64,000 bases of DNA from Candidatus Poribacteria bacterium (GCA_965242965.1 OZ251518.1:352001-416000); one strand, 5' to 3'. Positions 11,020 through 38,972 are shown, numbered from the stretch's first letter. Translations and numbers: made by a program. Notes: generated from the sequence alone by a model not told the origin.

Positions 11020-14000
11020 CTATTCCCGCTTTTTCAACGCACCGAACGTCGTCAGCATCCGATTCGATGCGGAAACAGGACCCGGCAACAACCGCGTCAC
11101 TAATGTTTCCCGCTTACCATCAAACGCAACTTCCTCAATCTGATAGTAATACTCAATCCCCGGCTTCGCAGACGTATCGGTAAACGTGTAGGTTTGACGT
11201 TCACCTGTCGTGCCGGCACCGGCGATTAAGGCAGGATTCAAGAGCGTGAAACCACTCCCGCGCTTTTCGCTACGGCGCAGATTGAACCCGGCGTTGTCTA
11301 CCTCGGATTCGGTTGTCCATGTCAAGACGACAGCACCAACTTCGGTGCGCGTCAGCGAGAAACTTGATAACTCAACAGGTAATGCACCGCCTTCACGATG
11401 CCCCGGTGTGCCGATGTCCTCAGCATGGCCGTAATGGAGAGACTCATCAAACGGCTTGATGCGCGATGCCAACACCCAACTCGCACGCTTTCGTCCCGGC
11501 AGCGCAACACCTTTGTCGTAACGCCGAATGATGGAACTCCGAGAACCTTCCTCAAAACTCAACGGTAATGCCCAGGCCGGTGCATCATCCGAACGCCGAT
11601 CGCTGTCCCTATTCCCGACTTCGTCTACCAGATTCCCGTTCCTATCGGCGAGTTGCAGGTAGAACCCTTCGGTACTTAAGAAGGTATCGCGCGCCCTTTT
11701 TATGCGCAGATTCTTCTCATGCAGTGCAAGCAGATCGTAAATTCTGTCCGCCGGTAGATACGAATCCGACGAGGCACGCGCAGGTCCGGCCACGATGAGC
11801 AACGTTTGATTCGGTTGAATCACTTTTTCGCTGAGCGTCAACGTGACAATCGGGCGGCCGACTAAATCCTCGGAATCGACATTCTGGATCTCCAACTCCC
11901 AACGGTTGAGATTGATAGCATCCGTTTTGGAATTGTTGTAGAGTTCGATCCATTGCGGCAGTGTGCGCCCGCCGGAATCCACCATGATTTCACTGAAGGT
12001 GATGCTGCCTTTCGGCGTGGCGGCTTCCGTTTTCACTGCACCATTCGGATACCCCGGTGTGCCGGAAGTGGCGGCAGACTCTGTCACCTTCCTGTCATAG
12101 CCGATACCCGTGAATGCCGATTCTGCCCACGCATCTCGATGATACCCGACGATATCCGCCTTCGCGCGCTGCCAGACCTTGCCTGAGCCGAGGGCATCTT
12201 CAGTGTCACCACCGGGTGCCTCACGCACTTGCAAGGGCCAGACATGCGTATCATAATCGCCTGTCTGTTCACGGACAAACGCATCGGTGTCACTGCCGCC
12301 GCCACCGGCGACATCCACGAACGCCTCGTTCAGACCGAGTTTCTCTTTGGCATTCCGCAGAATCAACAGGAATTTTCCATCATCTGGCAGGGACAACTCC
12401 GATTTGACGAGATACAGGTGCGGTGAGCCTTTCTTCTCCACGGCGGCCGTGGCGGCATCATTCCCACCGGCGAGAGACGTTTTGTCCGGTGACGTATTCA
12501 CAAGCAGCAACAGCCCATTCGCCGGCACGCTCACATCTTCTACAAAAGCAATCAGGGAGGTATCTTCCTTCTTGCCATCCTGCACGATGCTGAGCTCCCA
12601 GTCCTTTAACGAGACTGCAGATCCTGTCACATTGCGGAGTTCCAACCAGTCATCAGCATCGTCACTGCCGTTGCCGAGTTCGTTGAAGACAATAGGACTC
12701 CGCGGCACATCCGTGGCGGCAGCCTTCGGCTCGGACTCCTCAGGAAGATAGATAAGGTTGATAGGCACCTCTGTCCGAGGGGCCAGCTCCTGGTCAGATT
12801 CACCCTGCAATTGGCCTTGCCCTGGCGGTGGCGTTGTCACCAAGCCTTCGCCGGACCCTTTCGCCGGTGCACCGGTGCCCGATAATTGGCTGCCTGTCTC
12901 GTCCACCAGCCGCGTGTCACTCGGCACGGTTAACCCAATCTCCTCCGCGACGCGCAGCGACTGCGCAACATCATTTGCCGCTACCGTATACGCAAACGTC
13001 ACTTTTGTCGAATTCGCGTCTTCCTGAGCACTCCAGATAGCGTGCCGTGCATTTGCCGGCACCTCTTCGCCCAGATACAGCGTCAGATACGGCGGATCCT
13101 CGCCTACATAGCGGAGACCTTCCCGATTATACGTCACTTCCACCTCAATCTTCTCTCCGACGGTATACACACCCGCCGCAGGCTCAACTATCTCCGGTGT
13201 TTCTACTACCTGGAACGGGATGTTCACCGGCACCGTCAACGTATTTGAGGCAAGGCTATCGTTACGCGCGATGTCCTGTGTTGCACCCGCTGGCAACCGG
13301 ATAGCCACGTCTCCCTGAAAACCGAGAGGCGGCGTAATCGTGGCTTTGTAGACGAGGAACGACCCGGAGTTCTTGGCATGCCCTGGCTTGTGGGCTGAAC
13401 CCGCCGGCTGCCCCGGTCTGTCCCTAGTCGGCCACTGATTGGTGGCACGATTGTCCAACCCGATATAGATAGTCTCAACTTGCCACTCGGATCTCACGAC
13501 ATCCGCACCGGTAATCTCCACATCATCGCCGGTAAAACTTTCCCCGACTTCGTCGGCTATCGCGCCCTCCGGCCTGTGATGGTTGAAAAAGCGGAATTCA
13601 ACATCAAAGGGACCTGTCTGGACATCGCTTTCCGTGACAGCCTCACGTAAATCGTCCGCTGTCATCATGGGGATTGCGGTATACGTCGCATCCAGATTCA
13701 CCGCGGCAATCCGTCTATCCTCTATGTGCGTGACACCATTTTTTATGATGCCGGGAATCCAGACTGTCGCAGGGATGGTATCCACCAGATACTTGATGAT
13801 GCCGAAAGCGTATGCGTCACTGTATCTTTCCACAGGCAGGTGGATGAGATTAGTTGCTGCAACCTTGATATCCGGATCGTCTGTGAGGTTGGGGATGCCG
13901 GTAAAAAACGCCCAAAGTTGCCGCTCAAGATCCGCCCCGGTATCAAACTCGTTGCCAATCAAATCTGTTATAATACGCGGGTTGTCAACAGGCGTTCCTC

Positions 14001-15207
14001 TGCGCCATTCCGTATGAGTATTCGGCCGAAATGCTTCTGTACCAAGTTCTATGGCACCGAAAGCGCGATGCCCTTCGGTCTTCAACTTGCCGGCTTCATC
14101 ATAAAACCACCGAAACGTTTTCACGCCGCCCTCAAGCCGAAACGTTAACTCGTCTGTTCCCGTGCCGGACACGTAGATACACTCCGTAAGAGCAGCATCT
14201 AGTTTCGCATAAAACGAGGGAGGATTGTTGGTATCCACCTGCACCGCTTCACTAAACTTCACCTTCACTTCAAACGGATCGCCGGCTCGCAAATAGAATG
14301 CCCGCGGGCTATTGGCCAACGTCACCGCGTTCGCGCCGGTTGGAAGGGCCCAACCGTGGTCGTGCACGAGTTCGCAGGCAGCAGTGTAGGTGTCACCGTA
14401 TTTTCGGTGATCCTCTAGGCACCCTTGACGCACCTGATGGTAGCGGGACGGCCCTGACTGCCCGGCAGGCGGCGCGTTTATCGTCAGGCTTTCCACCGTA
14501 GGATAGGCTGAGACTCTGCCATCTATCTTGGGGTAGTGGATAGTGCCGGTATAGGTAGCAGCTCGTACGGCCCCCGAACCCCACCTAACGAAAGGTTGGC
14601 TATTAGTCGGCGGATTCCCATAGCGAAGCCAACCGCCATCGTCGTCCCTGTCGCCTGACCGCACTTTATAGAGGTATACCACGGTATACGAATACGGTAA
14701 AGTCACAGGCACAGGCCTGTTTGGGTTTTTAAGTTCAAGATTGCGGCTCGTTCCCAGCGTTTTCATCCACGACGGAGGCGAGGTACCGGTTGGACCACCA
14801 ATCTCCCAATTCTCTAAAGATATTACTGATACGTGCCCGACTGTGGCCTGACCAGTACCGGTTACGGTCATTTTAAAGGCGATTGCGATGATGTCGCCAG
14901 CGTTTGCTGTAACAGGGTTTGCACCGTTGTGCGCTTCCATTGCGGTGATTTCAACACCACCATTCTCAAGGCTCAGCGTCCCCTCCGTAAAATCGTCGAC
15001 CCTCGCCAGTTTGCCGTCAATCTGATTACCACTCCACGTTACCCAGTTCTCTGGGTCTGGCGTATTATCCTCGTTGGGTAGTACCATGTCAGGATTCACA
15101 TAAATCCTGAGGTTATTAATTTGATATTGTGCCTGCGCTTCGGGCCCTGTTCCGATGAGAATTACCAAGGCGGCAAGCAGCAAACCTATTGGAAAAAGCA
15201 ATTTCAT
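11020..15207 (-). CDS. Large secreted/surface protein (1395 aa) with Ig-like and two lamin-tail-like domains and a C-terminal LPVEL...LTTFGALK tail
   Basis: Signal peptide MKLLFPIGLLLAALVILIG..AQA; 'IVFNELG..DWLELRN' and 'ITFSEIM..QWIELYN' LTD-like motifs; GGAGGA SD before ATG 15207. Confidence 0.8.
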   Translation of the reverse strand: MKLLFPIGLLLAALVILIGTGPEAQAQYQINNLRIYVNPDMVLPNEDNTPDPENWVTWSGNQIDGKLARVDDFTEGTLSLENGGVEITAMEAHNGANPVTANAGDIIAIAFKMTVTGTGQATVGHVSVISLENWEIGGPTGTSPPSWMKTLGTSRNLELKNPNRPVPVTLPYSYTVVYLYKVRSGDRDDDGGWLRYGNPPTNSQPFVRWGSGAVRAATYTGTIHYPKIDGRVSAYPTVESLTINAPPAGQSGPSRYHQVRQGCLEDHRKYGDTYTAACELVHDHGWALPTGANAVTLANSPRAFYLRAGDPFEVKVKFSEAVQVDTNNPPSFYAKLDAALTECIYVSGTGTDELTFRLEGGVKTFRWFYDEAGKLKTEGHRAFGAIELGTEAFRPNTHTEWRRGTPVDNPRIITDLIGNEFDTGADLERQLWAFFTGIPNLTDDPDIKVAATNLIHLPVERYSDAYAFGIIKYLVDTIPATVWIPGIIKNGVTHIEDRRIAAVNLDATYTAIPMMTADDLREAVTESDVQTGPFDVEFRFFNHHRPEGAIADEVGESFTGDDVEITGADVVRSEWQVETIYIGLDNRATNQWPTRDRPGQPAGSAHKPGHAKNSGSFLVYKATITPPLGFQGDVAIRLPAGATQDIARNDSLASNTLTVPVNIPFQVVETPEIVEPAAGVYTVGEKIEVEVTYNREGLRYVGEDPPYLTLYLGEEVPANARHAIWSAQEDANSTKVTFAYTVAANDVAQSLRVAEEIGLTVPSDTRLVDETGSQLSGTGAPAKGSGEGLVTTPPPGQGQLQGESDQELAPRTEVPINLIYLPEESEPKAAATDVPRSPIVFNELGNGSDDADDWLELRNVTGSAVSLKDWELSIVQDGKKEDTSLIAFVEDVSVPANGLLLLVNTSPDKTSLAGGNDAATAAVEKKGSPHLYLVKSELSLPDDGKFLLILRNAKEKLGLNEAFVDVAGGGGSDTDAFVREQTGDYDTHVWPLQVREAPGGDTEDALGSGKVWQRAKADIVGYHRDAWAESAFTGIGYDRKVTESAATSGTPGYPNGAVKTEAATPKGSITFSEIMVDSGGRTLPQWIELYNNSKTDAINLNRWELEIQNVDSEDLVGRPIVTLTLSEKVIQPNQTLLIVAGPARASSDSYLPADRIYDLLALHEKNLRIKRARDTFLSTEGFYLQLADRNGNLVDEVGNRDSDRRSDDAPAWALPLSFEEGSRSSIIRRYDKGVALPGRKRASWVLASRIKPFDESLHYGHAEDIGTPGHREGGALPVELSSFSLTRTEVGAVVLTWTTESEVDNAGFNLRRSEKRGSGFTLLNPALIAGAGTTGERQTYTFTDTSAKPGIEYYYQIEEVAFDGKRETLVTRLLPGPVSASNRMLTTFGALKKRE

Positions 15208-15276
15208 TACAAATTCCTCCATCTTTGGATGTCGGGGTATCCTTCTCACACCGGTGGAGAAGGCGCGCGTTCTCGA

Positions 15277-15319
15277 AGAAAAACAGGGTAACCGTGGGCG
15301 GGCGCCCACGGTTATCCTG
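15277..15319 (-). terminator. Intrinsic terminator/attenuator in the 5' leader of the surface-protein gene
   Basis: CAGGATAACCGTGGGCG-CC-CGCCCACGGTTACCCTG then TTTTTCTT, about 70 nt upstream of ATG 15207. Confidence 0.7.
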
Positions 15320-15617
15320 CCCCTTAATATCCCAAGTGGGGAGTGAATTTTCCCCGGAACAACGCTGTTTGGCTCTGGGCTGCCGTGAATGAAAAGGGGT
15401 GGTGCAACGCGAAAAGCCCCTTGGCGGCTCTCCGTGTGGAGGCGACGTTGCTAAGGAGCTATCGGTTCGCGCGCGAACCGGCTTGCGCGCAGGAAATCTG
15501 CACGCGTATTCATTGTTGTGGGAGTCAGAGCCGGGGTGGATTGTCCCGCGATGGGGACAACTTTCTTCCCTCCCCCAGGCGCGTTTCTGCCGAGAACAGC
15601 AGGGTATTAACTGCCGT

Positions 15618-15794
15618 TTAGTGAGGGGGGGGGTAAATGGTTATTAGTGTGGTAATCTCAACCGGGTCAACGGAGTTAATGGGAGGCGCGAACGCGGACA
15701 TCACGCGCGGCCGGGGTGGCTGGCGTGTCGCTGTCATGCCATGATGCAGATGCCTAATGGTATCTGCAGAGATGGAAGCAGGATAGAATGTCAT
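15618..15794 (-). CDS. Leader ORF (58 aa) with a C9 homopolymer just before its stop
   Basis: AAGGAG SD 8 nt before ATG 15794; ends ATT TAC CCC CCC CCT CAC TAA. Confidence 0.6.
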   Translation of the reverse strand: MTFYPASISADTIRHLHHGMTATRQPPRPRVMSAFAPPINSVDPVEITTLITIYPPPH

Positions 15795-15855
15795 GTGTTG
15801 CGCTCCTTTCCGTTAATCGGGTCTGTTATCGCACTAAAATTGGTGTAATGTATAT

Positions 15856-15884
15856 ATTATACCACATTTTTGTGCGTTTGTCAA
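15856..15884 (-). promoter_or_regulatory. Sigma70 promoter for the leader and surface-protein gene
   Basis: TTGACA (15884-15879)-N17-TATAAT (15861-15856), with TG extension. Confidence 0.85.
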
Positions 15885-15957
15885 ATTAAAATGTGATTTT
15901 AATGGATTTTCGTGTTTTTTTCAAGGTTTTTTTGAAAAAAATTTGATTTTTCTGTCG

Positions 15958-16712
15958 ACGGTATCCAAAACGGCCCCGATTATCGTAGCGCGAGGGCCTG
16001 TCCCTCGCGATCGTTCACGGTATCCAAAACGCCCGTTTCACCGTAGCGCGAGGGCCTGTCCCTCGCGAGCGTTCGATGGAACCGAGAACGCCCCGTTTCA
16101 CCGTAGCGCGAGGGCCTGTCCCTCGCGAGCTCTCGATTCTCCCGGGCATGGCGGGGGACAGGCCCCCGCCCTACGGTATTCGGAGCGGCTTTTTTAACCG
16201 TAGCGCGAGGGCCTGTCCCTCGCGATCTCTCGATTATCCCGGGCATGGCGGGGGACAGGCCCCCGCCCTACGGTAAAACGGGCCGCCTCCTTCTGTAGGT
16301 CAAGAGCGCCTGCTCTTGACCTGTTTGCGATCAGGCGATCGCAAACTACAGAGGGGAAACGCGACGGTATCCAAAACGCCACCGATTACCGTAGCGCGAG
16401 TGCCTGTCCCTCGCGAGCGTTCAACGAATCCAAACCGCCCCGATTCCCGTAGCGCGAGGGCCTGTCCCTCGCGAGCTCTCGATTCTCCCGGGCACGGCGG
16501 GGGACAGGCCCCCGCCCTACGGTAATTGAGGGCCGTCTTCTCTTGACCTGTTTGCGATCAGGCGATCGCAAACTACAGAGGGGAGCGCGCACCGTATCCC
16601 GGGCACGGCGGGGGACAGGCCCCCGCCCTACGGTAGAAGCGTGGTTCCTCCTGTAGGTCAAGAGCGCCTGCTCTTGACCCGATGGCGATCAGGCGATCGC
16701 AAACTACAGATG
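15958..16712. repeat. REP-like array
   Basis: Many GTAGCGCGAGGGCCTGTCCCTCGCG, GGCGGGGGACAGGCCCCCGCCCTAC and GTAGGTCAAGAGCGCCTGCTCTTGAC copies. Confidence 0.88.
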
Positions 16713-16725
16713 CGGAGCACGCCCA

Positions 16726-17895
16726 TTAAAACGCCGCCTCCAACAACCCCAACATATCCTCCTCCGTGCAAGAGCGCGGGTTGGATTTATAACAGTGATC
16801 CAACATAGAATCCGCGGCGAGTTTGGGGAGACGTTCGCGAGGCAAACCGCAGGCACCAAGTCCCTCCGGCATCCGTAATTCCTCGTTCAATGCGCGGATT
16901 TCGTCAATAGCGGCGCGCGCAGCGGCTTCCGCAGACATGCCAGCGGTGTTTACGCCTAATGCATCGGCGACATCGGCGTATTTGTCCATCGCAAAGGAGA
17001 AGTTGAATTCCATCACGGGCGGCAACAGAATCGCGTTGGCGACACCGTGGGGTATCGGTGCTTCAGTGGATAACTGATGCGCGATAGAATGGACTGCGCC
17101 GAGTCCCTTCTGAAAAGCGAACGCGCCCATGCTCGCGCCGAGCAACATCTCGGTTCTCGCCGTGACATCGTCGCCGTGATGATACGCCTTTCGGATGTTC
17201 GCGCCGAGCATCTTCAGTGCCTGCAATGCGACACCTTCGGAGATAGGGTGATACCTCGTGGCGACATACGCTTCGATGCCGTGCGTGATGGCATCCATGC
17301 CGGTGGCGGCGGTGAGCGGCATCGGCATGCCTACCGTTAACCCCGGGTCGAGGAGAGAGATGTTTGACATATTTAACGGCGTAACGATGGCGCGTTTTCG
17401 CCATCTATCTGTCGTGTTTCGCGAGGTATCGGTGATAATGGCACCTTGCGAGACCTCGCTGCCGGTGCCAGCTGTCGTCGGGATGCAGATGAGCGGCGGC
17501 ATGTTATCGCGGATGCGTTCCCTCCCGCCGACATCGACGTAGTAAGGCTCCAACGGCGGTTCGTGCGTTGTCAAAATGCGAATGGCTTTCGCTGCGTCCA
17601 TCACACTTCCGCCGCCGATGGCGATGATGACATCGCATGCGGCGCGCTTCCACAACGCCGCCCCTTCTTCCGTGCTGATGTCTGTCGGATTCGGTTCAAT
17701 TTCGGTGTAGTCGGCATAAGGGATGTTGGCATCTTCCAACGGCGCGATGGCTTTCGCGAGGATGCCCGCGCGGCGGACACCGGCATCGCTTACCACCAGC
17801 GGTTTTCGGCCACCGAGGTGCTTGACATGCGCCGCTAGGGATTCAATTGCACCCTCGCCACATTCAATGCGCGGCGGTAAAAAGTAGCTATGCAT
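16726..17895 (-). CDS. Iron-containing alcohol dehydrogenase
   Basis: GGGSVMDAAK, IPTTAGTGSE, GMDAITHGIEAY, HSIAH and HGVANAILLP motifs; start overlaps the upstream stop. Confidence 0.93.
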   Translation of the reverse strand: MHSYFLPPRIECGEGAIESLAAHVKHLGGRKPLVVSDAGVRRAGILAKAIAPLEDANIPYADYTEIEPNPTDISTEEGAALWKRAACDVIIAIGGGSVMDAAKAIRILTTHEPPLEPYYVDVGGRERIRDNMPPLICIPTTAGTGSEVSQGAIITDTSRNTTDRWRKRAIVTPLNMSNISLLDPGLTVGMPMPLTAATGMDAITHGIEAYVATRYHPISEGVALQALKMLGANIRKAYHHGDDVTARTEMLLGASMGAFAFQKGLGAVHSIAHQLSTEAPIPHGVANAILLPPVMEFNFSFAMDKYADVADALGVNTAGMSAEAAARAAIDEIRALNEELRMPEGLGACGLPRERLPKLAADSMLDHCYKSNPRSCTEEDMLGLLEAAF

Positions 17896-26955: not shown

Positions 26956-29900
26956 TCAACTCCGCGCCTTCTTAAGCCTAGTTTCAACGAGATTGATAAC
27001 CGCCTCGTAAACGCCATCACGCTCGCCTTGCGTCAATTCCAAGATGTCAAAGATGACGTTGTCAATCGCGATGCGCGCCGGTGAAGGCGATAAAACGTCC
27101 CATTCTTCGGATGCGAGGAGGGATGCATTTACCCCCCCCCTCAAAATTCATGTCTGTTAAGTTAGGGTTAACACATCGTAGCTCTCCCAAATCCGAGGTT
27201 TGGAGTTCTAACTCCCCATATCCTAGGTTTGAGCGACCGTTCACGTTCACCATCAACTGGAAGAAAGTAGAATTGAGGGAGAAACAGAGAGGTATCCTCA
27301 ACTCAAGTGCGCATTGGAGTTCCATAAACTTGCCAGTCACATAACACCCCTCACTGGCATACAATGTTTTTGCCGTTGAACGCATCCGGTGCGCAAAACT
27401 CATATACGGAGGCGGGCGTTTGCCCACATCATACCATCGCCGTCTAGATCGGATGCTCGGCCGCTGAGGCAGTTTCTGGCTTTCACCCGATTCAATGTAT
27501 GCCAACGCAGCGGTGCCTCTTAAGGCTTCTCTCTCCTTTTGACACAGAAAGAGTTGATGTGGTGATTGTTCGGGGCGAATCAACAGGCTCTCAGTGACTC
27601 TCCTGTCGTTGACAATCGGGTGTAAAAACTCTGGCTCAATATGCCACGCCGAAATCGTCTCCGCATCAAGGATGAAAAACTGGTTTGCCCCGCTCATGAT
27701 TCCTCGCCGAATCTGAGCGATGTCGCCGACACGGACGAGTTTATCCGAGCCTTTTTCTAGTAATGTCCAATAGATGTCGGGAGCGCGCAGATACTTCGCG
27801 CCCCATTTGTTTCCGGTATACTTCGTCTTTGCATCCATTCCGGCGGCTAAAAGTGCATCCTGCGAGAGAAGGTGAATTCGATATTCAGGCAGAGCATTCC
27901 GCTGGATTTCGGTTTCGATTTCGTAAAAGATGACAGGATCCAAAATAGCCTCAAACGGTTCGGTAAAGTTAACAAACCGCACAATGTCTTGCAAACCTGA
28001 TGCGCTATCTCTAACCGGGGCGGAGATGAGACAAATAGCAGTGTTGATATTTACGGCTTTGAAGGAACGTCGTGCCGCGTTGTCCAAAACCAGTTTGAGA
28101 TGACACCGCTTAAGGAGGAATTCCTGCAAATCTTTGCCGAAGTCCGCATCTAACCACGATCTGGATGTGATAGTGCAGAAGGTTCCTTTGGGATTTAGCA
28201 ACGAGAGTCCGTGAAAGTAGAAGTAGACGTAGAGATCGCTGTTGCCATCTAGTTTATGCTTCACGGCAGACGCGGGGTTTTCCTTCGTATCCTTCTCCGG
28301 TTGATACCCGAAGAATGCAGGGAACGCCTGATAAACGGAACGCGCCAACTTGGCTTTATACGCCTTCGTGTTAGCGGGTGTAACCGCGTCTCGGGCTAGC
28401 GTCGGGTCTGTGAGTTTTTTCGTTGAAACGTAAGGCGGGTTTTCTATCACGATGTCAAAACCACCATACTGTTTGAAAATCTCAACGAAGGCAATGTCCC
28501 ACACGAAAGGTGGAACTGCATCTGACGTAAGGGCATGCTGGGCACGTTGGAGGTTGTTGAGATTCGCCTGTTGAAGTGCCAACTCCTGTTGCTTTTGCCG
28601 AGTTGCAAGATCTAATTGCGCTGCCTGGGGTTTCTCAATCCCGTCAAGCGTCAGTTGTTCAGCCGGATCTTCAAGCCATTCCTGTAAACCTGCAATGCCT
28701 TCCAAAATTTGGCTTTCCTGCGACTGCAGTGTCTCCCGAAAGAGCAAGTTCTCGGCGCGTTGCACATCCGCTTTCTCACGATATTTCCGCTCACGTTCGT
28801 TGTGATAAAACTTCAGTTTCTCTGTCTGGTGGAATACGATTTTGCGCGAGATGTCAGTCGGCACGCCGCTGCCCAACGCGCGCGTCTGCGCGAGGTTCAT
28901 CCCACCGATGTCCTGCACCAGACTATCGCCGTGACGAATGTTAAACGAAAAATCAGGCAGCAAGGGCTCCTCGCGAATCTGCAGTTCCGCGGTGGAAATC
29001 TCTGCCTCAATGATGAGCGCGAGCCAGAGGCGTAACTCGGCAACTTTGCATGCCCACGGCATCACGTCTACGCCGTAGAGATTCTTGCCGATAATCGCCT
29101 TGCGGCGTTCAAACCTTGAGGTAACAGATGCACCGAGGTGCCGTGCGGCGCGTTCCCCCAGGTCATCGAGAATATGGAGCATGCCGACGAGAAACGAACC
29201 GCTGCCACACGCCGGATCCAACACCGTGAGACGGTTCAGATGCGTCGCGATATCACCCCACTGCGCGGCGAGGTGGGCATCGGCATCTTCCTTCTCTGTT
29301 TCATCGAACGTAAAGAGTGCGGCGTAAAATTGATGCTTATGCGCCTCACCGATGTGATTTGCGAGGTTATCTACGAGCGCGAGACGGCACATCATATCTA
29401 TCTCGATGCGCGGCGTGTAGAAGATGCCGGCATCGCCGCGTTCATCGGTTTCAGCGGAGACACTGACGAGACTCTCGTAGACTTTGCCGATCATCTCGGG
29501 GTCTACGGCGACTTCCTGTTCCAGCGGGGTATCCTCGGCGATGGTGAAGTTATATCCCTCGAAGAACTGGAAGATGTCGCGCCATAAATCATCGGGAATC
29601 GTGGTGGCATACTCGGTATCCCATTCGTTTTCTCGGAATAAGCCGCCGTTGAGATAGGGCGCGTGCTGAAGCGTTTCGCGGATGTTGTCAGGAAAGTAAC
29701 GATATCCGCCGTGAAACTTCTGATTGAAAGCGGCGAAGAAGAGGACGTTGAGCCACTTTGCCACGAAGGTATCCGCTGGTTGCGTTGCGTTTTGATACGC
29801 CTGCCAAAACGTGTGCAGGAAATCGGTGTCGTTTCCGAGCCACCGTTTTCGCTGGATGAAATAGAGGAAGAGGCAGCGGCTGAGGAATTGTTGGGCTGCA

Positions 29901-30565
29901 TCGTGCGCCCACTTTTTATCAGCGGTTTGCGTTTCCAACTCGGTTTGGAGGTTTCTGAAGACGCGCTGATAGTCGGCGAAAAACTGCGCTGTCACGGCAT
30001 CGACATCGAAGGCGGCATCGTGCTGTTTGGTAATTTGCAGAGGTGTCAGCAGCTCTGGATTTGGGAAGAGGCTCTCCTGTTGGCCGTCAATGGCTATCGT
30101 CGCCAGATCGAGCATTGCGATACGTTCGGCGGCGGTGCGGAGTTTTTCATCGGGCGCGACAGTGATGCGCCGGAATCGGTGGCGTGCCTTGTGTTTCTTG
30201 CTTGCCTCGCGGACGAGTGTGACGTTGACGAAGTGCCAGTGGTCTTGCGCAATATTGCTAAAGATGTAGAGCGCGTGCGGGAAGCGCGTCTGCAAGTGCG
30301 CGATGACGCGGCGTTCGGCGGTCTTGCGGGGTGTTTCGGTATTGAGGCGCGCGTATATGATGTGAAAGTCGTTATCCCTACCCCCGGCGGCAAAGCGTCG
30401 CGGTGCCTCGGCGAGGCAGTCGGCGATGGCTTCCGGGATGTTCTCAATCGGTTCATCGATGCGGTGATAATTGAGTTCTACCCAAAAGAGTTCGCGCAGG
30501 GGTTCGATGCCGCGGAGGTTTTGTAGCAGAGTTAAGATGCGTTCGGTGTTTTCGGGTGTTGGCAT
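26956..30565 (-). CDS. Large N6-adenine DNA methyltransferase (Eco57I-like); natural C-terminus out of frame at G9 tract 27132-27140
   Basis: YLNGGLF, GKVYESL, GIFYTP, LDPACGSGSFL and ENPPY motifs; in-frame ORF stops at 27062, helical tail lies in the frame ending 26956. Confidence 0.85.
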
Positions 30566-38729: not shown

Positions 38730-38972
38730 TTGAGACCAGGAGGTCTCTTCCCTACCGGAAGGCATCGGGCCCATCTCTGTAGTTCGGGATCGCCTGATCC
38801 CGAACGGTTCAGGATCGGGCGATCCTGACCTACAGAGGTGAGGCGGTCTGACTCCAAAACGCATGGCGAGGGACAGGCCCTCGCCCTACGGTGAAGGGGG
38901 GGGCTTTCTGCCGCCGCGGCCCCGGTAGGCGCGCCGCCCTATTGCATCGAGACCGGAAGGTCTCGCCTACTG
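38730..38972. repeat. REP-like composite
   Basis: Shared GTAG-hairpin modules. Confidence 0.8.

Follow-up and report, generated by a model that had tools for sequence, protein, structure and literature searches.

In the closest described system, that of pil1 and pil3 in Streptococcus gallolyticus, GCAGA repeats located in a leader-peptide gene set the position at which leader translation stops (Danne et al. 2014, PLoS Pathog, PMC3894217). According to the sections of that report used here, a stop about 30-40 nt upstream of a stem-loop terminator results in low expression and a stop within or beyond the terminator in high expression by translation-mediated antitermination, a model confirmed by start-codon, stop-codon and terminator-deletion mutants (PMC3894217). 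Classical contingency loci, as far as the excerpts used here describe them, are surface-protein genes of Campylobacter and Neisseria in which a G or C homopolymer lies in the 5' part of the coding region (PMC8355987, PMC5084427). The locus considered here belongs to a Candidatus Poribacteria bacterium (GCA_965242965.1 OZ251518.1:352001-416000; these 64,000 nt, the whole stretch of DNA that was analysed, are called the window) and comprises, on the minus strand, a short leader open reading frame (ORF) ending shortly after a C9 homopolymer, a terminator-like hairpin and the gene of a large secreted LTD protein, hereafter the cargo gene. An earlier note, made from the sequence of the window, had singled it out as a candidate phase-variable attenuator. 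We observed a distinct and conserved anatomy, a depletion of stops from one frame across the hairpin, paralogs in ON and OFF configurations and a relation to cassettes located within ORFs; that the leader ORF serves as a frame switch and attenuator, gating the LTD gene by poly-C length, is, on this basis, an evenly balanced proposition.

The leader is headed by a sigma-70 promoter (15856..15884) displaying TTGACA and TATAAT separated by 17 nt, a TG extension and 12 of 12 consensus matches. It is followed by a Shine-Dalgarno (SD) sequence, AAGGAG (15803..15808), located 8 nt ahead of ATG 15794, and by the leader ORF (15618..15794), which in its present C9 phase comprises 58 codons and a TAA (15620-15618). 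The homopolymer that we propose as frame switch (15625..15633) occupies codons 55-57. About 300 nt past the leader stop and 70 nt ahead of the cargo ATG lies a predicted terminator (15277..15321), a hairpin with core 15319-15284 followed by T5, whose predicted fold (-35.8 kcal/mol, z=-3.8) was not matched in stability by any of 200 shuffles. The cargo gene (11020..15207) encodes a protein of 1395 aa that includes a signal peptide and two LTD stretches; its ORF begins 417 nt past the tract with its own ATG (15207) and its own ribosome-binding site (RBS), SD GGAGGA (15215..15220). All features that the earlier note lists, from the promoter to the cargo SD and ATG, were recovered at the coordinates given there. 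An internal promoter past the hairpin, which that note had raised as an objection to itself, was looked for as well, and no sigma-70-like site was found on the minus strand between hairpin and cargo ATG at this locus.

Changing the tract length in silico displaced the leader stop in the way that had been announced. The C9 phase stops 4 nt past the tract, and the C10 phase 15 nt past it, at 15607, on the TAA of a GTTAAT (15606..15611). With C8 or C11 a long frame is entered (15116..15624) that runs for 506 nt, or 168 sense codons without stop, passing across the hairpin and into the cargo gene, whose first 30 codons it covers in another reading frame. The tract lies outside the cargo ORF here, in contrast to sister loci 4262524, 906659 and 4126299, where it is intragenic as in a contingency gene. 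Since it is located in a separate leader ORF, a frameshift cannot truncate the cargo and must act via transcription or translational coupling.

Considered alone, the long frame of this locus was only weakly beyond chance, and it is the comparative data that, at the level of sequence, make it non-random. The three frames displayed 2, 11 and 0 stops over the 506 nt past the tract, and the probability of any stop-free frame amounted to 0.021 over this distance (5000 dinucleotide shuffles) and to 0.17 from tract to terminator; stop trinucleotides numbered 8 against a shuffle expectation of 7.7. The earlier note had also pointed out that the long frame contains no start codon. This is true here, where ATG, GTG and TTG are all absent (P=0.0002), and also in copy c1165, but most paralogs do not share it, and a start-free long frame was therefore rejected as a designed feature. 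Start codons in the long frame versus the other two numbered 64 vs 228 in the same genus, 20 vs 35 in genus g3 and 68 vs 162 in family E (both described below).

Eleven copies of the leader, this locus included, were detected by BLAST in the 5.7-Mb genome. Every one precedes a same-strand ORF of 1111-1468 aa with a hydrophobic N-terminus, and the cargo of the window is 59-78% identical to the genes behind nine of the ten other copies, the gene of c1165 being left out of the comparison. Congener G002 harbored at least 10 copies (eight analysed and two more) and G001, a fragmented assembly, a single one; each leader copy is followed by the gene of a homologous LTD protein that is secreted. Proteins related to the cargo come from metagenome-assembled genomes of Candidatus Poribacteria, which are sponge symbionts. 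The most conserved part of the leader is a 102-nt block (15278..15379; mean column identity 90%) formed by a small GGGG/CCCC hairpin and the terminator hairpin. A covariance model (R1) built from its alignment (A2), in which the present copy scores 121 bits, matched in 4 of 101 genomes of the family, namely this genome, G001, G002 and G004, a member of a different genus (g3). G004 displayed ten matches at about 40 bits, and seven of its copies were studied. The set used below thus consists of 27 copies, 20 from the same genus and seven from g3.

In a BLAST-type search of 40 relatives, only the promoter part matched outside the genus, and in other genera these matches precede tRNA and rRNA genes. 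Loci L014, L017, L019 and L020, from other genera of the same family, display the A/T-rich upstream part, TTGACA and an extended -10 before tRNA genes and, in one case, a 16S rRNA gene. As this promoter type drives tRNA and rRNA genes elsewhere, it is the strong housekeeping promoter type of the lineage. Two short motifs taken from the block were not informative: a 20-nt motif gave one match among genome contigs, in Pontibacter, that was judged to be chance, and a 19-nt motif gave 39 loci among metagenome contigs, none of them with the rest of the block and hence likewise attributed to chance.

The promoter was kept in all copies, with small changes in the hexamers and a spacing of 16-18 nt. 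An SD-like stretch and an [A/G]TG start were aligned across paralogs, a clear SD being absent from c3827 and c4889. Leader ORFs were open up to the tract in 27/27 copies, from which we infer that they are translated: the 20 same-genus copies displayed no stop between start and tract in the start-linked frame versus 60 and 44 in the other two, and in G004 all seven leader ORFs extend to the tract, the two remaining frames being closed by stops in the 26 nt that precede it. Small indels in c852 and G1a shift the ORF relative to the homologous nucleotides and nevertheless leave it open, so that, judging from the alignments, it is the openness of the leader ORF rather than its peptide that is conserved. 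The tract itself consisted of pure C, seven to ten residues long, in all 27 leaders (same genus: C7 once, C8 eight times, C9 nine times and C10 twice; g3: C7 once, C8 and C9 three times each). If coding for Pro-Pro or pairing with a G5 run were all that mattered, third positions or single C's could vary, and this purity argues otherwise. GTTAA was present 9-16 nt past the tract in 27/27 copies, as in most other loci with the cassette described below; it reads GTTAAC in 18 of the 20 same-genus paralogs and GTTAAT here and in G2b. Two of the three phases stop 4-34 nt past the tract, and the hairpin, as a predicted terminator, was retained in 27/27 copies.

The RNAalifold consensus of the leader family alignment displayed compensatory changes in 4 of 89 predicted pairs, with a weak covariation term (-1.45 kcal/mol), and one compensatory change was found in the small GGGG/CCCC hairpin of c5563. 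The same consensus contained no pairing of the leader-ORF end with the arms of the terminator. A pairing of the C-tract with a G5 run located some 55 nt further downstream was predicted, but this was rejected as the purpose of the tract because such pairs cannot covary, C8-C10 exceeds what they need and the g3 copies lack a G-run at that place. Copy c5563 (G000:C1:5563640-5564315; L119), which is now in the through phase, carries about 10 nt inserted between terminator stem and T-run, an insertion that should weaken termination.

A phase that runs through the hairpin, or through-frame, was present in 24 of the 27 copies (17/20 in the same genus and 7/7 in G004), and the expectation of the earlier note that relatives would keep open frame and hairpin without conserving the amino acids was thus borne out, even in a second genus whose sequence outside the hairpin could not be aligned. 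Between genera, similarity past the tract was confined to about 35-90 nt around the hairpin, and the long-frame peptides were alike there alone; as far as the sequences tell, the through-frame is kept between genera without the sequence being kept. It also remained stop-free across insertions in c3827 and c5563. All seven G004 copies have its stop 14-28 nt ahead of the cargo ATG. Placement of the long-frame stop at the cargo start, which would point to translational coupling, was suggestive and was not retained as a feature, for it was not uniform: the stop was adjacent to or overlapped the cargo start in merely 3 of 17 same-genus copies. In L126, L129 and L132 of G004, the terminator module occurs as a tandem duplicate with a start-to-start spacing of 117 nt (39 codons). 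As this period is divisible by three, both hairpins are crossed in the same through-frame.

An unbiased frame test was applied in which the frame was defined as the one without stop in the first 40 nt and stops were then counted from +40 to the RBS; loci with several frames open early (7/17 and 3/7) and G2a, G2c and G2g, for lack of a curated gene start, were left out. The selected frame displayed 3 stops versus 60 in the other two frames at ten same-genus loci and 2 versus 23 at four G004 loci, figures that overstate independence since the copies share descent. At 11 loci of family E the counts were 11 versus 33, without clear depletion. For single copies, the shuffled probability of any stop-free frame was 0.03-0.30 in the same genus and 0.09-0.27 in G004; three G004 copies possess two stop-free frames (P=0.002-0.013). 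A rough post hoc estimate, obtained by multiplying one representative per diverged lineage, was of the order of 1e-4.

The phases in which the copies are presently found were mixed. In this genome 3 of 11 are through (c2684, c2734, c5563), 2 of 11 are long and stop before the hairpin and 6 of 11, among them the locus of the window, are short, i.e. stop within 4-23 nt of the tract; three of these six end 4 nt past the tract and three at 15 nt. The eight analysed copies of G002 include two long and six short ones and none that is through, and the single copy of G001 is long. In G004, three of seven are through, four short and none long. Altogether the 20 same-genus copies amount to three through, five long and 12 short, and 6 of 27 are now through. 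As assembled, these counts are close to those of random phases and fit a switching equilibrium and drift alike.

The leader proved to be one version of a more widespread cassette. Runs of G or C were in excess at greater lengths in this genome (588, 106, 78, 29, 7, 3 and 1 runs of lengths 6 to 12), and a poly-C/GTTAA cassette was found at about 60 loci. Among the 118 runs of at least eight, 29 (counted by inspection) adjoin a palindromic repeat element; they form a second conserved class composed of an A-rich stretch, C8 and the palindrome, with an example in the window at 38896 (= 390896). Most other runs of at least eight share the cassette, with a consensus promoter 150-280 nt upstream, an ORF leading into the tract and, 9-21 nt further on, GTTAA. 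The pattern C8, 8-16 nt, GTTAA gave 51 matches in the genome versus 1 for the reversed control. Of 121 genomes sampled across the order, 62 contained it, as did 48 of 73 in the same family, and some genomes displayed 40-66 matches with tracts up to C13, counts that are inflated by overlapping matches. Single loci with C13, GATTCAC, 4-5 variable nt and GTTAA were observed in neighbouring family f3 (for example G133, G132 and G138), which indicates that the cassette reaches beyond the family of the window.

Three architectures could be distinguished. In the first, the short ORF forms the cargo's own N-terminus, and in the fused LTD family a conserved N-terminal peptide runs through the poly-C into the cargo ORF. 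Locus 4262524 (C8; G000:C1:4257977-4262665) is in frame and encodes a 1562-aa LTD protein, 60% identical to the cargo of the window over 915 aa. Its paralog 2589646 (C10), with flanks 90% and 100% identical, is out of frame, and so are five C7 paralogs (1117342, 1622255, 3449642, 3921206 and 4428800); these C10 and C7 genes keep at least 660 codons open past the tract. That such out-of-frame genes remain intact suggests that the frame is regained at times. Fused loci 906659 and 4126299 are in frame, and the domains encountered are LRR, Fn3, Ig and LTD. The second architecture comprises a short leader ORF and a cargo start 41-92 nt past the tract, for instance ahead of a TonB-dependent receptor. 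The third, which is that of the window, comprises a leader ORF, a structured spacer with terminator-like hairpins and the cargo; the search for further cases of this layout, which the earlier note had suggested, recovered the 11 LTD leaders and 14 loci of a group called family E.

Family E (14 loci of G000:C1, e.g. 1635662, 1825742 and 5267145) displays a consensus promoter and hairpin, an SD with GTG and two terminator-like hairpins, ahead of cargo genes that are unrelated to each other (TPR, cohesin/FlgD_ig and others). Its conserved 57-59-codon leader peptide contains T/P-P-P and ends at the TAA of GTTAA in 13 of 14 loci, and its third frame comes within 18 nt of the cargo ATG or passes beyond it in 7 of 11. 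The LTD leader, for its part, shares GTTAA and a purine-rich segment just past the tract with the fused family, and its long frame corresponds to the fused coding frame. From this common sequence and frame, the terminator-type leader probably evolved from the in-ORF cassette.

A mechanism can be proposed on these grounds, in which hairpin termination, its suppression by translation and a useful rate of tract switching are the inferred steps. The strong promoter would constitutively produce a leader of roughly 600 nt, on which ribosomes would start at the leader SD and ATG, and the length of the poly-C would set the frame in which they leave the tract. In two phases, conserved stops 4 or 15 nt past the tract would end leader translation; some 300 nt of structured leader would then be bare, the hairpin with its T-run would form and most transcripts would end ahead of the LTD gene (OFF). 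In the third phase, about 170 meaningless codons would be translated across the hairpin to the RBS region of the cargo, which would prevent hairpin formation, open the RBS, or both (ON); blocking of Rho is a further possible route. Tract length would change by slippage in replication, possibly also in transcription or translation, so that the cargo gene could be toggled without mutation of that gene itself. Under this scheme the present locus (C9, stop at +4) would be OFF in the assembly.

Several observations weigh against such a heritable switch. Logan contigs from four runs, each of a different study, were compared at the locus: X1, X3 and X10 each displayed a single tract-spanning contig, all C9, and X5 a minor C10 contig (depth 9.4 of 62.6) besides a main contig that ends at the tract. 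Since contigs drop rare variants, these lengths are weak evidence either way. Among the sequencing runs listed for this stretch, none was of RNA. The strain of X10 differs from the window by 22 substitutions and a 9-nt deletion, yet has C9. That deletion, located in the leader ORF (window 15664-15672 region) and in frame, was found in contigs of all four runs; it was the sole form in three and one contig (depth 9.2 of 40.2) in X5. Three of the four runs also had one additional A near 15835, in the interval from the -10 hexamer to the SD. Cassette pairs were classed as near-identical at 90% identity or more over the 40 nt flanking the tract on either side, and the tract was equally long in 61 of these 64 pairs. 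The tract of family E is effectively fixed at C8, with the same stop 15-16 nt on in 13 of 14 loci, and its sequences suggest a regulatory leader peptide that is fixed, rather than a switch. The genome encodes both MutS and MutL, and loss of mismatch repair was consequently rejected as a driver of tract variation. To these points must be added that the through-frame is absent from 3 of 20 same-genus copies (G2c, G2e, G2g) and ends anywhere from 114 nt before to 119 nt after the cargo ATG in the others, that the T-run is short in most copies (3-5 T), that the stop counts come from related copies and that the cargo's own SD and start could allow expression whatever the leader phase. Of the slipped-strand ON/OFF control by translation-coupled antitermination advanced in the earlier note, the conserved layout and frame are supported; variation of the tract is barely seen, with C9 in 3 of 4 samples, one minor C10 contig and equal lengths in nearly all pairs.

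The principal alternative to a heritable switch is a fixed leader peptide that stalls at prolines, and we consider it unlikely, if deserving of most attention. The tract encodes Pro-Pro(-Pro) in every frame, and all 27 leader peptides carry at least PP there; ribosomes would pause at the tract through EF-P or tRNA-Pro, their position or pace near the stop would decide on passage of the hairpin or escape from Rho, and differences in tract length among copies would be tolerated drift. Leaders with proline codons are known from Salmonella (mgtL, mgtP) and leader-peptide control of Rho from tnaC. The single frame, conserved 57-59-aa peptide and GTTAA stop of family E, the stability of C9 across three of four samples and of tract length in 61 of 64 pairs all suit this explanation, as does the stop at the TAA of GTTAA (15-16 nt past the tract) in 8 of 20 same-genus and 2 of 7 g3 copies, two more g3 copies stopping at +14 on a TAA just ahead of GTTAA. 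Selection for proline alone, however, would permit CCN codons, and 27/27 tracts are pure C; frame and peptide end vary among the LTD leaders of this very genome, some 300 nt separate the leader stop from the hairpin, and the consensus fold offers no alternative pairing between leader end and terminator. Variable frame and peptide end and the lack of that pairing likewise set the locus apart from amino-acid-sensing attenuators of the trp, his or mgtL type. A fixed peptide would moreover leave unexplained the depletion of stops from the third frame and the fused ON/OFF paralogs. A second rival is an evolutionary relic: the leader would descend from the N-terminal coding part of a fused ancestor, its frame, three-base periodicity and tract being leftovers, with the cargo expressed from the strong promoter and the hairpin acting as mRNA stabiliser or leaky terminator. 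The GTTAA and purine-rich segment common to LTD leaders and the fused family, in the same frame, agree with such a relic, the cargo does carry its own SD, ATG and signal peptide, and a single-copy long frame is not very improbable (P=0.02-0.3). A relic should decay, yet the tract is uninterrupted in 27/27 copies across two genera, the early stops are kept in two phases, and the through-frame stays stop-free across the insertions of c3827 and c5563 and across sequence that cannot be aligned between genera; together with the 3 versus 60 stops of the frame test, this makes a relic a distinctly unlikely explanation.

The gate might also be the same as proposed here and its setting non-heritable, with RNA polymerase or ribosomes slipping on the C-run (tRNA-Pro +1 at CCC-C) and producing a graded response. 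Polymerase slippage at homopolymers rescues frameshifted genes in endosymbionts, and +1 frameshifting at CCC-C is restrained by EF-P and m1G37. Slippage in expression would accommodate the stability of tract length across samples and among near-identical paralogs and would also account for the intact out-of-frame fused genes. It nonetheless seems improbable, for the shift needed is not uniform as it would be at programmed frameshift sites (of 14 non-through copies that have a through phase, 6 need -1 and 8 need +1), and paralog leaders differ in tract length, from C7 to C10, at the level of DNA. That the unit is a stand-alone non-coding RNA gene, merely located upstream of LTD genes, appears very improbable. 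The strong promoter and the hairpin with T-run do bracket a conserved unit of 460-650 nt with several predicted hairpins and compensatory changes in the 4 of 89 pairs mentioned above, but the covariation term is weak and a scan of 14900-16500 against Rfam gave no match at E<=1 inside the leader (15250-15900). Furthermore, a homologous gene on the same strand always follows about 50-390 nt downstream, with no promoter-like site between at this locus, and SD, start and open leader frame are conserved.

Two further features of the window were recorded. A palindromic repeat array occupies both strands of 15950-16730, directly upstream of the promoter, and includes four direct-repeat families and 30 inverted-repeat pairs, among them GC-rich 27-nt palindrome arms. 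Rfam matches at 15910-16290 were far under gathering scores; those at 16100-16290 fall in these palindromic repeats, and the weak microRNA-like ones over the array are hairpin artefacts. The second is a G9 on the coding strand (27132-27140) in a minus-strand ORF (27062-30565), about 25 codons before the end of its 1167 aa. This ORF has an NPPY-type motif and presumably resembles a methyltransferase or restriction enzyme; a change in G9 length would alter just the C-terminal tail.

Taken jointly, the loci allow a wider reading, which we put forward as tentative and rather doubtful: a lineage-wide Poribacteria 'phasome', in which a portable cassette would stochastically gate dozens of eukaryote-like surface proteins per genome. 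As part of this joint reading, the cassette would consist of strong promoter, short N-terminal ORF, poly-C and GTTAA stop, in fused and uncoupled architectures; its cargo would include LTD, LRR/Fn3, TPR, cohesin and TonB-receptor proteins; and the LTD proteins, whose C-terminal halves are conserved and whose N-terminal halves vary, would form a repertoire resembling antigenic variation with a minority of copies ON per cell. Sponge symbionts are thought to use eukaryote-like surface proteins against ingestion by the host and perhaps against phages. As these bacteria cannot be grown, the regulation of such proteins has resisted study, and a recognisable cassette whose tract would set ON or OFF makes it testable locus by locus in existing data. 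If the frame switch is real, the leader-peptide phase-variation attenuator, so far a single streptococcal case, would be found in a distant phylum as well, deployed at genome scale, and a path of its evolution from in-ORF phase variation would be displayed. Annotation pipelines will label many such genes as frameshifted or miss the leader ORFs. In the literature searched, no report of phase variation or of relevant homopolymeric tracts in Poribacteria was found, nor any account of a conserved cassette shared by dozens of surface-protein genes in a lineage of uncultured sponge symbionts.

Compared with known systems, the leader resembles mgtL and mgtP of Salmonella and tnaC of Escherichia coli in being a short ORF with consecutive Pro codons near its end, followed by a long untranslated spacer. 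In those leaders the frame is fixed, proline codons are mixed and the stop adjoins defined alternative structures or rut sites, whereas the frame varies between copies here and the tract is pure C. In the pyrBI attenuator of E. coli, the leader ORF spans the terminator hairpin and a close ribosome suppresses termination, as we propose for the through phase; coupling is provided there by UTP-dependent polymerase pausing, without a repeat tract, and would be provided here by the frame. Classical contingency loci, in the excerpts used (PMC8355987, PMC5084427), share with the present cassette, its sister loci included, a poly-C/G tract (7-12 nt) close to the 5' end, cargo that is secreted or located at the surface and paralogs in and out of frame; they differ in that the tract of the window is located in a separate leader ORF followed by a terminator and not in the cargo ORF. 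The closest likeness is to pil1, a demonstrated precedent for a layout of which the earlier note knew no described case (PMC3894217, in the sections used). In common are a simple-sequence repeat in a leader ORF between promoter and structural gene, translated there and presumably here; a stem-loop terminator, predicted here, between leader stop and surface-structure genes; in-frame states that stop upstream of the hairpin and an out-of-frame change, seen here in silico, that lengthens the leader through it; cargo genes that are left unmutated; and occurrence of the layout at more than one locus. Against 13-23 GCAGA units there, the repeat is a C7-C10 homopolymer here, and about 250-400 nt instead of about 30-40 nt would be translated before the hairpin. 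The present leader is structured and conserved, without sequence homology to pil1, and at least 25 terminator-type loci per genome (11 LTD-type and 14 of family E) are accompanied by in-ORF versions. Its host is an uncultured sponge symbiont of Gram-negative type, in which the system is known from sequence alone. The principle is known from one Gram-positive pathogen, and what appears to be new, in the literature searched, is a conserved many-locus cassette in a lineage of sponge symbionts.

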